A stretch of 47,664 bases of DNA. Origin: a virus. Its lineage: Duplodnaviria; Heunggongvirae; Uroviricota; Caudoviricetes. The stretch is taken from the IMG/VR virus record IMGVR_UViG_2639762844_000003. One strand, 5' to 3'. Position 1 is the first letter of the stretch. Each line of letters begins with the position of its first letter. This document shows, in pieces, positions 4,206 through 44,647 of the stretch. A program made the translations under genes and the position numbers. The notes beneath the pieces were generated by a model that saw only the letters and a list, made by a program, of their open reading frames with translations, was not told the origin of the DNA and made no database searches.

Positions 4206-4397
4206 TTAAAGACCTGCCGGGATTTCGATATTATACTGGTGAATAACTTTATCGACCGGGTAACAGTTACCGGGAATTTTCTGTTCGGTTGCTGCAGTCA
4301 TACACTCCTGCATTGTCCTGTGAACACTGACTGCAATATCAACTGGCTCTCCGGAAACAAGAAAAACTGTCAGAACAAGCGCAAATGCTGAATTCAT
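4206..4397 (-). CDS. ydfD: YdfD-like small protein (63 aa) with N-terminal hydrophobic segment
   Basis: Starts at the internal ATG (MNSAFALVLTVFLVSG...); size and position downstream of dicB match Qin ydfD. The ORF-track start further upstream is less likely. Confidence 0.5.
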   Translation of the reverse strand: MNSAFALVLTVFLVSGEPVDIAVSVHRTMQECMTAATEQKIPGNCYPVDKVIHQYNIEIPAGL

Positions 4398-4582
4398 TGT
4401 GCACATCCTTTTGGCATCAGACGTAAACGAGCCAGCATTGAAACAATGCATATTTTATTTAATAGCTCCCGTTCTTGTTTTCTCTTGTTAATGGCATCTT
4501 CAGTAAATACAGGGTTACTGATAGTGACACCAATTTCAAAACAACCTTCAGACGTATTAACGTTTGGTAATAACGTTTTCAT
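4394..4582 (-). CDS. dicB: DicB-like cell-division inhibitor (62 aa)
   Basis: Internal ATG with GAGGA Shine-Dalgarno 7 nt upstream; 62-aa product MKTLLPNVNTSEGCFEIGV...; follows the dicF-like RNA as in the Qin dic operon. Confidence 0.6.
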   Translation of the reverse strand: MKTLLPNVNTSEGCFEIGVTISNPVFTEDAINKRKQERELLNKICIVSMLARLRLMPKGCAQ

Positions 4583-4755: not shown

Positions 4756-4808
4756 ACGGCGGCAGAGCAGTCACGGAGTAAAACTGATACCGCCAAACGT
4801 CACCAGAA
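4756..4808 (-). ncRNA. dicF: DicF-like small RNA (antisense regulator of ftsZ)
   Basis: Minus strand reads TTTCTGGTGACGTTTGGCGGTATCAGTTTTACTCCGTGACTGCTCTGCCGCC followed by a T-run, matching the recalled DicF sequence; lies between the ydfA-like genes and dicB. Confidence 0.55.
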
Positions 4809-5068: not shown

Positions 5069-5644
5069 TTAAGGATTCATTAAGCAATGTCGCAACCACC
5101 AATAAATCCGCTTAAGAACATGAAAATTGATTACTGGTATAAAGCGCTTACAGTTGTTGGCGCTGCGTTGTTTGTCTTTAATGGAACGTCTTTTTTTGAC
5201 AGATATCCCGTTGTTCCATTGGGTTTTTTGTCCTCCGGCATCTTTTTTATTGGTTTGGGGGAGTGGATTAATCACCCTCTCAAAGTGAGATTTATTGGTC
5301 CTGGAGTTTGGACTCGTGGATATAATCGTTCTTCGTGCGCACTCGGTATCATCTTCGACATACTTGGTTGTTTCCTGATTGTTACAGGAGTCGTCAAGTT
5401 CTTCTGATGTAAAACCGCAAATGGGGCACGTAACGGGAATTTTGAAAAGCGTTTCTCCGGGTTCCAGAACAAAATTTTCTGCGGTCTGATTTTGCTTCTC
5501 ATATTTGTGCTCCGCGTCATTGTGAGAGCACATTCTTATTCTGAGTGCCTGTTTAAACTCACTGAAGCTGAGAGCTTCTTCGCCTTCGGCAAGGCCTTCG
5601 AAGTATTCTTCGTAAGCCTTTTCCATGATTGTGTCGAAATCCAT
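5069..5644 (-). CDS. Hypothetical protein in the ydfB/ydfC position; 3' half doubtful
   Basis: ATG at 5644 is coupled to the stop of the upstream ydfA-like gene (TGATATG) with a GGTGAG Shine-Dalgarno. The acidic N-terminal ~85 aa look protein-like; the K/R/N-rich C-terminal half overlaps a plus-strand membrane ORF and may be read-through. Confidence 0.35.
   Translation of the reverse strand: MDFDTIMEKAYEEYFEGLAEGEEALSFSEFKQALRIRMCSHNDAEHKYEKQNQTAENFVLEPGETLFKIPVTCPICGFTSEELDDSCNNQETTKYVEDDTECARRTIISTSPNSRTNKSHFERVINPLPQTNKKDAGGQKTQWNNGISVKKRRSIKDKQRSANNCKRFIPVINFHVLKRIYWWLRHCLMNP
5087..5407 (+). CDS. Small multi-pass membrane protein, hypothetical
   Basis: 106-aa ORF with about three hydrophobic helices; lies antisense to the 3' half of the 5069..5644 ORF, so only one of the two is likely real there. 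Confidence 0.35.
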   Translation: MSQPPINPLKNMKIDYWYKALTVVGAALFVFNGTSFFDRYPVVPLGFLSSGIFFIGLGEWINHPLKVRFIGPGVWTRGYNRSSCALGIIFDILGCFLIVTGVVKFF

Positions 5645-5645
5645 A

Positions 5646-5803
5646 TCACTCACCTGAGTTTCTTTCCAGCCAGCGACGGGCACCATTTTCGGTTTTAAAC
5701 GTTTTGCTTTTGGTATACGTCATCGCGGTGAACGTACCGTCCTGGTTGGGGAACACGCCACATACCAGAGATTCGCTGTTGCCAAGATCGATAGTATCCA
5801 TGC
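5646..5803 (-). CDS. ydfA: YdfA-like small protein (52 aa)
   Basis: ATG with GAGG Shine-Dalgarno 6 nt upstream; 52-aa product MDTIDLGNSESLVCGVFPNQDGTF...; first gene of the leftward operon below the repressor. Confidence 0.55.
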
Positions 5804-5877
5804 TGACCTCATTTCCCCTTAACGCCGGGGTAGCGGAACTGTTTGCTGAGAACACCGTGCGGTGTCTTGATGGAAGT

Positions 5878-5930
5878 AATTTAGTTTTCTCATTATTTTT
5901 CGTCAAGGTTTTTTGATGAGAAAACTCAAG
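5878..5930 (-). promoter_or_regulatory. Leftward PL-like promoter with flanking operator motifs
   Basis: On the minus strand: -35 TTGACG (5901-5906), 17-nt spacer, -10 TAAATT (5878-5883). The motif ATGAGAAAACT occurs at 5916-5926 and, inverted, at 5883-5893, bracketing the -35. Confidence 0.45.
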
Positions 5931-5993
5931 TATTGGCGCAAGATAAAGCCAATACATTGAAATGTAAGGCTTTAAAATTTTGTGAAGGGATGA

Positions 5994-6401
5994 TTATTGA
6001 TGCTTGTTGCGTTTGCGAGCCTCTAATAGCTCGGTGAACAGGCGATTAAAATTCTCAACGCGGGCGCGGAGTTCGCTGAGTTGTGCTTGTTGCTCTGATT
6101 TAGGAAGTGCGCGATACAAACGCAGCATCTCTAACTCATCTTCCGATAAGTCTAAGGCACTATCGAGTGAAACAGGGGGAGCTGGTGTTTTGTCCTCGTC
6201 GCCAAACAGTATCCAGGTTGGTGAACATTGCAATACCTCGGCGAGGCGATGCAAATTTTGCCCGCGCGGGGCTGTATGGTCACTTTCCCATAATGAAATT
6301 GATGAGCCAGATACGCCAGCAGCTTTGCTTAAACCGTTTTGACTTAAGCCTACCTGCTTACGTCTTTCTCTAATGCGTTGACCTAAAGTTTTCTCGTTCA
6401 T
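5994..6401 (-). CDS. dicA: DicA-like HTH (XRE family) prophage repressor
   Basis: MNEKTLGQRIRERRKQVGLSQNGLSKAAGVS... helix-turn-helix and the ..LQCSPTWILFGDEDK.. motif recalled from DicA; diverges from a cro-like gene. An alternative upstream ATG at 6452 would give a leaderless start. Confidence 0.8.
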   Translation of the reverse strand: MNEKTLGQRIRERRKQVGLSQNGLSKAAGVSGSSISLWESDHTAPRGQNLHRLAEVLQCSPTWILFGDEDKTPAPPVSLDSALDLSEDELEMLRLYRALPKSEQQAQLSELRARVENFNRLFTELLEARKRNKHQ

Positions 6402-6423
6402 ATTTAGATATCTTAATAACCCT

Positions 6424-6466
6424 TGACTTGAGATTCCTTGAGTGATTAGCATTGAGAAAACTCAAT
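6424..6466 (+). promoter_or_regulatory. Rightward PR-like promoter with palindromic operator
   Basis: -35 TTGACT (6424-6429), 18-nt spacer, -10 TAGCAT (6448-6453), overlapped by the inverted repeat ATTGAG-AAAA-CTCAAT (6451-6466); GGAGG Shine-Dalgarno and cro-like ATG follow. Confidence 0.5.
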
Positions 6467-6478
6467 ATTGGAGGTGCG

Positions 6479-6706
6479 ATGTTTAAATCAGACGTAATTA
6501 ATTTTTACGGTACGAAAGCCAAAGTAGCGAAAGCTGCTGGCGTTGACCCATCTGCTGTTTCTCAATGGCAAGAGCTGGTTCCTGAAGGTCGCGCGATGCG
6601 TCTACAGGAGGCATCTGGCGGCGAGCTTCTGTATGATCCCAAGGTTTATGACGAATATCGTAAGACGAAGCGGGCGGGGCGGTTGAACAATGAAAATCAC
6701 TCCTGA
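6479..6706 (+). CDS. dicC: Cro/DicC-like small regulator
   Basis: 75-aa product from ATG at 6479, with GGAGG four nt upstream; divergent from the repressor. The ORF-track start at 6452 is a TTG inside the operator. Confidence 0.7.
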   Translation: MFKSDVINFYGTKAKVAKAAGVDPSAVSQWQELVPEGRAMRLQEASGGELLYDPKVYDEYRKTKRAGRLNNENHS

Positions 6707-10427: not shown

Positions 10428-10892
10428 TAGAAGGTTAGCTTGTGTCGGACTTTGCGTATTAAATGACTAGTGGTTGAGCCCCATTTCCACAGAAAAAATC
10501 AGAGAAACTATACCCAATAGTTGTATTGAATCACTGACGAGACAGCCTCATATTCATCAGGACTGGTGTACGTCCAATACAGGAGGTTGTGGTGCTGGTT
10601 CTCAAATGTGCGCTGGCTATTACGGCTGTAATGGCGATTTATTGTCTTGCTATTGTTCTTATGGATCGCCTTTCTGACTGATTTCACATTGGCGAGGTAA
10701 CGGTAGTTAAGTAGAATGGCTGCGGGTGCTTGAGGCTATCTGCCTCGGGCATGAACACCAACGGCAGATAGAGAAAAGCCCCAGTTAACATTACGCGTCC
10801 TGCAAGACGCTTAACATTAATCTGAGGCCAATTTCATGCTAGACACATGTAGGTTAGCCTCTTACGTGCCGAAAGGCAAGGAGAAGCAGGCT

Positions 10893-11048
10893 ATGAAGCA
10901 GCAAAAGGCGATGTTAATCGCCCTGATCGTCATCTGTTTAACCGTCATAGTGACGGCACTGGTAACGAGGAAAGACCTCTGCGAGGTACGAATCCGAACC
11001 GGGCAGACGGAGGTCGCTGTCTTCACAGCTTACGAACCTGAGGAGTAA
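10893..11048 (+). CDS. hok: Hok/Gef-family type I toxin (membrane-depolarising peptide)
   Basis: 51-aa product MKQQKAMLIALIVICLTVIVTALVTRKDLCEVRIRTGQTEVAVFTAYEPEE, near-identical in pattern to Gef/HokC; in-frame upstream ATG at 10836 is mok-like. Confidence 0.8.
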   Translation: MKQQKAMLIALIVICLTVIVTALVTRKDLCEVRIRTGQTEVAVFTAYEPEE

Positions 11049-11264: not shown

Positions 11265-11516
11265 ATGATGAACATCGAAGAACTGCGTAAAATTTTTTGT
11301 GAAGATGGCCTCTATGCGGTGTGCGTTGAAAATGGAAATCTTGTTAGTCATTACCGCATTATGTGTTTGCGAAAGAATGGGGCTGCGTTAATTAATTTTG
11401 TGGATGGTCGAGTGACAGACGGATTTATCTTGCGCGAAGGTGAGTTTGTCACTTCATTACAGGCACTGAAAGAGATCGGAATAAAAGCAGGCTTTTCAGC
11501 TTTTGCAGAAGAATAA
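11265..11516 (+). CDS. rem: Rem-like small protein (83 aa)
   Basis: 83-aa ORF next to hok, matching the size and position of Qin rem. Confidence 0.5.
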   Translation: MMNIEELRKIFCEDGLYAVCVENGNLVSHYRIMCLRKNGAALINFVDGRVTDGFILREGEFVTSLQALKEIGIKAGFSAFAEE

Positions 11517-14260: not shown

Positions 14261-14336
14261 GGTCCTTTAGCTCAGTGGTGAGAGCGAGCGACTCATAATC
14301 GCCAGGTCGCTGGTTCAAATCCAGCAAGGGCCACCA
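14261..14336 (+). tRNA. tRNA with CAU anticodon (Met, or Ile2 ileZ-like)
   Basis: Cloverleaf read by hand: 7-bp acceptor stem, GCTCAGTGG D-arm, CAU anticodon loop, GGTTCAAATCC T-arm, 3' ACCA. Confidence 0.85.
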
Positions 14337-14441
14337 TCACAAACCGCCATGAGCTTATCAGGAAGAGCAGACGACACGATAACAGGGTTGTTGGTGCGGG
14401 GGGGGGGCGGGTCCCCGATGGCGGTCCATTATCGGTATTCA

Positions 14442-14518
14442 GCGTTGTTAGCTCAGCCGGACAGAGCAATTGCCTTCTAAGCAATCGGTCACTGGTTCGA
14501 ATCCAGTACAGCGCGCCA
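14442..14518 (+). tRNA. tRNA-Arg (UCU anticodon)
   Basis: Acceptor GCGTTGT/ACAGCGC, D-arm GCTCAGCCGGACAGAGC, anticodon stem ATTGC/GCAAT with loop CTTCTAA, T-arm GGTTCGAATCC, 3' GCCA. Confidence 0.85.
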
Positions 14519-14982: not shown

Positions 14983-15456
14983 ATACATATCTGGATTATC
15001 ACCTGTTACGGTAAAAAGTGATTGCTTACTGTTTTTGTGAATGGCATTGCAGCAGCCGGATAATGTCAGTGCTGGCTGACGGTGTGCTGGTGGCGGGTGT
15101 GGTGGTTGTTGCTTTCCCGTTGCTGAAAAAGAAAACGCCAGACTGTTAGCCGGGTATCAGTTAGCGGGAGAAATTTTTAAATACTTCACAATTCAGGCGG
15201 TTGACTGTTCTCTGGTTTGCGGGGAGTTTGTTAAAAGAAACTGGCATGGTGAATCCCCCTGTGCGGAGGGGCAATCAGCGAGTAGGTATATGGGATAATC
15301 GCGGATTCAGGTGCTGGTACTGAATTCACCGGGAGGCACCCGGCACCATGCACTTCAATAGATTCTCTCCACATTATGGATATTCTTTCAGAATATCCCA
15401 CGCAGACTTTGTGTAAATGTTAACAAATGTGCGTTTTATTTGATCTGATTCGCTGT

Positions 15457-44066: not shown

Positions 44067-44647
44067 TGGCATTCAGAATGAGTGAACAACCACGGACCAT
44101 AAAAATTTATAATCTGCTGGTCGGAACTAATGAATTTATTGGTGAAGGTGACGCATATATTCCGCCTCATACAGGTCTGCCAGCAAACAGTACCGATATT
44201 GCACCACCAGATATTCCTGCTGGCTTTGTGGCTGTTTTCAACAGTGATGAGGCATCGTGGCATCTCGTTGAAGACCATCGGGGTAAAACGGTTTATGACG
44301 TGGCTTCCGGCGACGCGTTATTTATTTCTGAACTCGGCTCATTACCGGAAAATGTCACCTGGTTATCCCCGGAAGGGGAGTTTCAGAAGTGGAACGGCAC
44401 AGCCTGGGTGAAAGATGCAGAAGCAGAAAAACTATTCCGGATCCGGGAGGCGGAAGAAACAAAAAACAGCCTGATGCAGGCAGCGAATGAGCATATTGCG
44501 CCACTTCAGGATGCTGTAGATCTGGAAATCGCAACGGAGGAAGAAAACTCGTTGCTGGAAGCCTGGAAAAAGTATCGGGTGTTGCTGAACCGTGTTAATA
44601 CAACAACTGCACCGGATATTGAATGGCCAGTAGCACCTATAGGGTAA
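44066..44647 (+). CDS. tfa: Tail fibre assembly protein (Tfa-like)
   Basis: 193-aa ORF whose start overlaps the stf stop; lambda order. Confidence 0.85.

Follow-up and report, generated by a model that had tools for sequence, protein, structure and literature searches.

Does a single repressor hold both early operons of this prophage silent, by way of one family of operators placed on the two sides of its own gene? The question is posed by a short palindromic motif in the 47,664-nucleotide stretch of tailed-phage DNA analysed here (hereafter the window), which the initial annotation had located at the rightward promoter and, with an inverted partner, at the leftward promoter beyond the repressor gene, likening the arrangement to that of lambda cI between OR and OL.

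The window corresponds to a lambdoid prophage of E. coli located beside rspB, with the K-12 Qin prophage in the same neighbourhood. The minus strand comprises, in order, int, xis, the gene of an 823-aa exonuclease, ydfD, dicB, the DicF RNA, ydfA and the repressor gene, whereas the plus strand continues beyond the repressor with a Cro-like gene, a YdaT-family gene and the replication genes. The leftward operon thus begins with ydfA, followed by DicF (4757-4808; Rfam match, 72.5 bits) and dicB (4394-4582), with dicB and ydfD assigned by RefSeq annotation. The prophage appears to be complete, since it closely matches two functional phages, mEp460_ev081 and HannyBb, at near-identity; both of them carry near-identical immunity regions; mEp460_ev081 is a functional temperate phage with dicB, dicF, dicAC and rem (PMC10448788). 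The regions and genes on which the analysis turns are the following:

5646-5801, minus strand: ydfA (DUF1391), from the Pfam DUF1391 match and the RefSeq annotation of an identical locus
5876-6577: immunity cassette of about 700 bp, delimited by blastn breakpoints
5994-6401, minus strand: gene of the DicA-type repressor, 135 aa, with the start assigned by homology and RefSeq annotation
6479-6706, plus strand: Cro-like gene, a DicC homologue of 75 aa (Pfam P22_Cro, E 3e-16; RefSeq name DicC)
11265-11516, plus strand: rem, a probable antirepressor, 96% identical to K-12 Rem

The window is 96-98% identical to Qin up to position 5875 and again from 6578, and between 5876 and 6577 the alignment is restricted to a short part of the repressor gene. 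The same segment is heterologous to the Qin, PPompW and E. ruysiae prophages, with flanks that are 94-98% identical. All the operator-like sites fall within it, as do the repressor gene and the half of cro that encodes DNA binding, and it corresponds to a classical imm region. This cassette is carried by 796 of the 5426 complete E. coli genomes (about 15%).

The two regulatory proteins of the cassette display clear relatives. The repressor aligns along its whole length with K-12 Qin DicA (57% identity over 127 of 135 residues) and matches in Pfam only the HTH_3-type (Cro/C1-type HTH) families, with no match to Peptidase_S24. Residues 1-72 align with the N-terminal domain of P22 c2 (E 8e-16), and the matches to PDB entries end at about residue 72; the architecture comprises (i) a c2-like HTH N-terminal domain and (ii) a short helical C-terminal domain. 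A longer open reading frame of 152 aa starting at 6452 was rejected for this gene, the 135-aa start at 6401 being common to all homologues and to RefSeq. The Cro-like protein matches the P22 Cro structure 1rzs (E 2e-12), and its C-terminal half is identical to K-12 DicC.

The 12-mer TGAGAAAACTCA occurs in two exact copies in the whole 47.6-kb window, at 5917-5928 and 6453-6464, both on the plus strand, and a third copy with one mismatch, TGAGAAAACTAA, lies inverted on the minus strand at 5881-5892. An exact 12-mer repeat is expected by chance about 0.006 times in the window. Allowing one mismatch, 3 matches were found against 0.21 expected, a number reached by one of 100 shuffled sequences, and all three fall within 590 bp and flank the repressor gene, which lies between them as originally described; matches with two mismatches stand at chance level only across the window. 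The full unit is a 14-bp pseudo-palindrome, TTGAG-N4-CTCAA, comprising 5-bp arms and four central bases. When only the arms are scored, with up to two mismatches, the window as a whole shows no enrichment (16 matches against 22.6 expected), and 5 of these 16 are located inside 5880-6465, where about 0.3 are expected; the matches outside that interval are at or below chance, with none near rem or elsewhere. Beyond the three strong sites, the arms-only score brings out two weaker ones, at 6403-6416 and 6428-6441. An unbiased repeat search over 5780-6500 returned the three strong sites as the direct and inverted repeats common to both intergenic regions, together with the 18-bp near-palindrome at 6401-6418, and disclosed no other repeated motif common to the two promoter regions. 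A further operator-like match (11 of 14 bases) at 6385-6398, in the first codons of the repressor gene, was rejected as chance, since the AAAA at its centre falls in codons E3-K4 and Buttiauxella has M at residue 4, where this centre could not persist. A literature search for the motif string returned unrelated primer sequences only.

The candidate sites and the promoters around them, the latter being consensus or homology predictions as regards both hexamers and start sites, are arranged as follows:

5878-5906, minus strand: predicted leftward early promoter (PL, equivalent of dicBp), from a consensus scan
5880-5893: candidate OL1-type operator, TTTAGTTTTCTCAT, reverse complement ATGAGAAAACTAAA
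5916-5929: candidate OL2-type operator, ATGAGAAAACTCAA
6403-6416: weak OR3-like site, TTTAGATATCTTAA, inside the 18-bp near-palindrome and collinear with P22 OR3
6410-6438, minus strand: putative repressor maintenance promoter (PRM-like), by homology to P22 PRM
6423-6452, plus strand: predicted rightward early promoter (PR, equivalent of dicCp), from a consensus scan
6428-6441: degenerate OR2-like site, TTGAGATTCCTTGA, with arms matching at 8 of 10 bases and collinear with P22 OR2
6452-6465: candidate OR1-type operator, TTGAGAAAACTCAA, a perfect 14-mer within a 16-bp palindrome (6451-6466)

On the left, the predicted PL comprises a -35 hexamer TTGACG (5906-5901), a 17-bp spacer and a -10 hexamer TAAATT (5883-5878), a layout common to Qin. 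OL1 overlaps the spacer and the -10, and OL2 lies 9 bp upstream of the -35, with 36 bp between the centres of the two sites. The inverted partner and the left copy of the motif therefore do bracket the leftward -35, as the initial annotation had proposed, and its placing of the motif at both promoters holds as well, with coordinates right to within 1-2 bases. On the right, the predicted PR displays a -35 TTGACT (6423-6428), an 18-bp spacer and a -10 TAGCAT (6447-6452). OR1 starts at the last base of this -10, spans the predicted start site and ends 5 bp ahead of the cro Shine-Dalgarno sequence GGAGG. The right copy thus stands at the rightward promoter; its supposed overlap with the -10 is only marginally true, since 1-2 bp of the hexamer are shared and it is mainly the predicted start region that is covered.

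The maintenance side of the right-hand region is occupied by the weaker sites. The PRM-like promoter would comprise a -35 AGGAAT (6438-6433), a 17-bp spacer and a -10 TAAGAT (6415-6410), with a predicted 5' end about 3 nt before the repressor ATG. No Shine-Dalgarno sequence precedes this ATG and the hexamers and spacing are identical to those of P22 PRM, so that the repressor transcript is likely to be near-leaderless. Transcription is predicted to start near 6404 for the repressor gene, 6459 for cro and 5871 for the ydfA operon. The OR3-like site, with arms that match at 8 of 10 bases, abuts the repressor ATG and overlaps the PRM-like -10, whereas the OR2-like site overlaps the PRM-like -35 and lies downstream of the PR -35. 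The latter site is made up of TTGAG direct repeats at 6428 and 6438, which were considered as extra half-sites and demoted to a doubtful relic. As regards a tripartite set of comparable sites, the right side comprises one perfect site and two with 8/10 arms, the left side two sites.

A close parallel is offered by immC of phage P22. When the annotated P22 genome is set against the window, OR1-3, OL1-2, PR, PRM and PL are collinear hexamer by hexamer. The right side of P22 reads CAT, AGTTAAGTCATCTTAAAT (OR3), aaac and TTGACT running into ACTAAAGATTCCTTTAGT (OR2), followed by agata, ATTTAAGTGTTCTTTAAT (OR1), ttcGGAG and the cro ATG; the window reads CAT, ATTTAGATATCTTAAT, aaccc and TTGACT running into TTGAGATTCCTTGAGT, followed by gattagc, ATTGAGAAAACTCAAT, attGGAGG and the cro ATG. 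P22 PRM (AGGAAT-17-TAAGAT) has its mapped 5' nucleotide 4 nt before the c2 ATG. On the left side, P22 OL1 and OL2 bracket the -35 as in the window and the early-left promoter shares the -10 hexamer TAAATT and the layout; P22 OL2, TTGAAGAAAACTTAAAT, and OL2 of the window differ chiefly in one position of each half-site. The operator geometry is equal, with 5-bp arms around four bases, and the cores are TTAAG-N4-CTTAA in P22 and TTGAG-N4-CTCAA in the window.

Besides these similarities, four differences are to be retained: (i) P22 c2, at 216 aa, carries an S24 domain for autocleavage and cooperativity, whereas the window repressor ends in a short, unrelated C-terminal domain; (ii) P22 displays three good sites at OR and at OL, whereas the window has two sites on the left and, on the right, a single strong site accompanied by two weak ones, and a P22-like third left operator (OL3), sought upstream of OL2, could not be recognised; (iii) the base-contacting helix is VSNVAISQWERS in P22 and VSGSSISLWESD in the window; and (iv) the leftward operon carries gene 24/N-like functions in P22 and ydfA-dicF-dicB in the window.

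The other parallel is with Qin. The Qin dicA-dicC locus has reportedly been studied by Bejar et al. (1986, 1988), Yun et al. (2012) and Ragunathan et al. (2023), and a repressor gene flanked by common operators is said to have been described for this homologue as early as 1988. Qin and the window share dicB-dicF-ydfA, the repressor, the divergent cro-like gene, the YdaT-like gene and the rspB neighbourhood; both repressors comprise 135 aa without an S24 domain. Qin is defective, whereas the window prophage is apparently complete. Both also display one palindrome between the cro-like -10 and the ribosome site and two around the ydfA/dicB -35, so that OR1 of the window is the positional equivalent of Qin Oc. 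The Qin palindrome at the dicC promoter, TTAGTTATGACTAA, is the core of Oc, which is printed as TTGTTAGTCATAACTAACAA (PMC3441716), and the ydfA/dicB promoter carries TTAGCCATGACTAA and ATGCTATAGCTAA around its -35. The sequences recognised differ: TTGAG-N4-CTCAA in the window against TTAG-N6-CTAA in Qin (Oc, TTGTTAGTTATGACTAACAA), together with the recognition helices of the repressor (VSGSSISLWES against ISHVSVSQWER) and of Cro (VDPSAVSQW against IRLASLYSW).

The Qin system has been addressed experimentally. DicA binds Oc in vivo, an A-to-C change of one base abolishes the binding, and Oc-bound DicA acts as a repressor of dicC and an activator of dicA, whereas the other predicted right-hand sites, Om and Oa, which are the equivalents of the two weaker right-hand sites of the window (Oa of the OR3-like one), are unbound by DicA in vivo (PMC3441716). 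In addition, deletion of dicA raises dicBp 22-fold, Rem derepresses dicBp 165-fold in K-12, DicA is devoid of an Ala-Gly cleavage site and DicC contributes to the bistable switch (PMC10448788). In ChIP-seq, dicA is flanked by DicC peaks with the palindromic motif TTNG...CNAA (PMC11430063).

Compared with these two systems, lambda is a more distant model. The likeness drawn by the initial annotation stands as far as topology is concerned, with the repressor gene between divergent early promoters that share one operator family and with cro divergent from it; the lambda maintenance transcript is leaderless, as we infer for the window. On the other hand, the 17-bp lambda operators show no sequence relationship to the sites of the window, strong sites are fewer in the window, and the repressor, in contrast to lambda cI, has no S24 domain and hence no RecA-dependent cleavage. 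The closest model is P22 immC or Qin dicA-dicC rather than lambda. The racR-ydaS-ydaT region of Rac resembles the window in that a divergent repressor/cro-like pair is followed by a YdaT (cII-analogue) gene; nevertheless, RacR is a different repressor and its four operators are confined to the racR-ydaS intergenic region. To our knowledge, no common operator has been described in Rac on the opposite side of racR. In the window, an inverted repeat resembling the YdaT box spans the ydaT start codon, at 6683-6700 (PMC11879457).

The sites are conserved islands in drifting DNA. Footprints were drawn from the window together with two Buttiauxella loci, whose repressors are 73-76% identical, and three E. 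coli copies at about 91% identity. The mean pairwise identity of the sites in this set is 0.89-1.00, against 0.61-0.68 for the other intergenic columns. OL1 reaches 0.94 (other columns, 0.61) and is invariant in the diverged E. coli copies; OR1 reaches 0.98 (other columns, 0.68), with immediate flanks that vary freely. The OR1 14-mer is invariant, including its AAAA centre, with the exception of B. gaviniae, which has G at the last base. OL2 shows single-base variants among the E. coli copies, and its position in Buttiauxella reads TTGAGAAAACTCAA/G, the perfect 14-mer occurring in Buttiauxella ferragutiae. The TTGACT of PR keeps its position in all homologous loci and in P22. As for the weak sites, the OR2-like site decays in Buttiauxella, whereas conservation of the OR3-like site is 100% across Buttiauxella, Citrobacter and the E. 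coli variants, perhaps because the putative repressor promoter overlaps it.

The comparison was extended to 19 further loci from genomes and three from phages. Within every immunity type, the best matches to the 14-mer that occupies the OR1 position lie in the left region of that type. For the window type, the cognate score amounts to 25-26 of 28 in the window and the two Buttiauxella loci and falls to 17-21 in the other types; for most loci, none of 300 shuffled controls attained the cognate score. The heteroimmune relatives carry different palindromes at the same positions, and the distance between the OL1 and OL2 centres is 34-36 bp in 11 of the heteroimmune loci. The recognition helices change together with the operators: repressor helix VS[GD]SSISLWES pairs with TTGAG...CTCAA operators, ISHVSVSQWER with the Qin palindrome and VAHVTISQWER with TTAGG/A...CTAA. 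The Cro helix also tracks the operator type, VDPSAVSQW occurring only in loci with CTCAA-type operator arms, as opposed to IRLASLYSW and VRLASVAAW.

Taken together, the three strong sites are best read, at a probability of roughly 0.85, as repressor operators laid out as in P22 immC and belonging to an immunity switch of the Qin DicA/DicC type. The alternative that the repeats bind no protein, being chance occurrences, promoter-architecture elements or RNA-level leader signals, could appeal to the A/T-richness of the motif, which resembles promoter regions in this respect, and to the absence of window-wide enrichment of the arms-only pattern. It appears extremely improbable against the very low chance expectation of the exact 12-mer repeat, the palindromic nature of the copies, their conservation within drifting intergenic DNA and their replacement by other palindromes at the same positions in heteroimmune relatives. 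An RNA-level signal is further opposed by the location of OL2 upstream of the -35, where it would not be transcribed; RNAalifold on the conserved leftward leader, with a crude alignment, gave 3 pairs only. It is also conceivable that the palindromes serve the Cro-like (DicC) protein only and that the DicA-type repressor acts elsewhere. The sole genome-wide binding data in the homologous system are those of DicC, whose peaks flank dicA (PMC11430063), the recognition helix of Cro covaries with the operator type, and Citrobacter braakii combines the Cro helix of the window and the CTCAA arm with a different repressor helix. We nonetheless regard such a division as very unlikely: Qin DicA itself binds Oc, the positional equivalent, in a manner abolished by a single base change (PMC3441716), the collinear P22 sites are annotated as C2 repressor sites, the repressor helix covaries as well, and no second repeated motif is common to the two promoter regions.

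The extent of the operator set is a separate matter. OR1 and the -10-proximal OL1 alone might be functional, with OL2 and the weak right-hand sites as relics of a P22-like tripartite arrangement, as could be argued from the Qin Om and Oa sites left unbound by DicA in vivo (PMC3441716), from the decay of the OR2-like site in Buttiauxella and from the single-base variants of OL2 in the E. coli copies. This reading is unlikely as a whole, given that OL2 matches the motif as well as OR1 does (13/14, and perfectly in Buttiauxella ferragutiae), that its distance from OL1 is kept in heteroimmune loci and that the OR3-like site is fully conserved, though possibly through the overlap with the repressor promoter. 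For the weak right-hand sites taken by themselves, function is possible but on balance doubtful: the poor conservation of the OR2-like site in Buttiauxella makes its role questionable and, together with the unbound Qin sites, renders a tripartite OR model weak.

With the three strong sites read as repressor operators, the homology of the repressor to DicA and c2, the site positions in P22 and Qin, the Qin experiments and the comparative data make control of both divergent early operons by one repressor the best reading of the locus, in agreement with the proposal from which the analysis started. Dimers of the 135-aa DicA-type repressor would recognise the 14-bp element TTGAG-(A/T)4-CTCAA. Bound at OR1, the repressor would switch off cro, the YdaT/cII-like gene and the replication genes; bound at OL1, over the PL -10, and at OL2, upstream of the -35, it would switch off the ydfA-dicF-dicB-exonuclease-xis-int operon. 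The Cro-like protein would most likely act on the same sites with different preferences, and the two weak right-hand sites (OR2- and OR3-like), which overlap the repressor promoter, could possibly contribute to autoregulation or to Cro-mediated shut-off. Because the repressor has no S24 domain, induction is expected to proceed via Rem and not by RecA-stimulated cleavage, the Rem antirepressor probably inactivating the DicA-type repressor, as the K-12 homologue suggests; the LexA box CTGT-N8-ACAG is absent from the entire window.

A further, tentative and rather unlikely possibility is that the cassette represents a natural specificity variant of P22 c2/Cro recognition whose repressor is controlled by a Qin-like Rem. 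Relative to P22, the variant would comprise one symmetric base pair in the operator (TTGAG against TTAAG) and the substitutions N32G, V33S and Q37L (P22 numbering) in the recognition helix. If this were true, Rem would be directed at the conserved part of DicA-type repressors, and several heteroimmune prophages sharing a cell could be cross-induced by it.

The arrangement discloses no new principle, being the textbook lambdoid one, known for decades. New are only the operator sequence of this immunity type, which the literature search did not bring up, and the base-by-base link to P22 immC. The analysis thereby provides a likely operator sequence and a promoter map for an immunity type that controls the dicF and dicB cell-division inhibitors, and the link to P22 immC leads to testable predictions on specificity swaps and on Rem-mediated induction.

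The leader of the leftward operon, running from the leftward promoter to ydfA, is conserved among the related immunity loci, and a conserved imperfect hairpin is located between the predicted operator OL2 and the stop codon of the repressor gene:
5802-5875, minus strand transcribed, leader of the leftward operon
5945-5975, imperfect hairpin AAAGCC-AATACATTGAAATGTAA-GGCTTT

The conservation of the leader spans both heteroimmune types and genera (loci L003, L005, L008, L010, L013, L015-L017 and L020-L022), with compensatory changes among loci in a first hairpin, ACACCG/CGGTGT versus AATCACT/AGTGATT. The motif GTTC(C/T)G is conserved in the leader too, which further has a second hairpin; in some loci this hairpin reads GCCCG-GAAAGA-CGGGC, similar to the boxB of lambda. 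By its appearance, the leader looks like a nutL-type site; no N-like gene to accompany it is evident, and the region has no match in Rfam. Regarding the 5945-5975 hairpin, its core ACATTGAAA is also retained in Buttiauxella, and the terminator scan did not call it as a terminator.

At the rightward side, mechanical calling yields a longest repressor ORF of 152 aa, starting at ATG 6452 inside the predicted operator OR1 (region 6402-6452), a start ruled out because all homologues and RefSeq begin at ATG 6401 (135 aa). The right-hand mosaic breakpoint lies at ~6577, within cro (6479-6706), the encoded Cro-like protein comprising a type-specific N-terminal DNA-binding half and a C-terminal half identical to K-12 DicC. 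A further repeat extends across the YdaT-family gene's start codon, at 6690:
6683-6700, TTGAAC-AATGAA-AATCAC

This repeat resembles the published YdaT-box TTGATT-N6-AATCAA, which in Rac and CP-933P likewise covers the ATG of ydaT (PMC11879457), and may represent a candidate cII-like site for an establishment promoter directed back at the repressor gene.

Other features of the window include one ORF with hydrophobic segments, situated between DicF and ydfB on the strand opposing the leftward operon and left without annotation in the identical RefSeq locus, and RNA genes matched in Rfam at gathering score, among which the sok antitoxin RNA adjoins hokD:
5087-5407, plus strand, 106-aa ORF
4757-4808, minus strand, DicF RNA
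10724-10898, 14261-14515, 15215-15405 and 44409-44607, sok, two tRNAs, STnc100 and IS009 RNA

Finally, since the probable antirepressor Rem (11265-11516) is 96% identical to its K-12 counterpart, yet the DicA-type repressor only 57% identical to K-12 DicA, Rem may target those parts of DicA-type repressors that are conserved (LQCSPTWILFGDEDK together with the C-terminal helices) and may act across immunity types.
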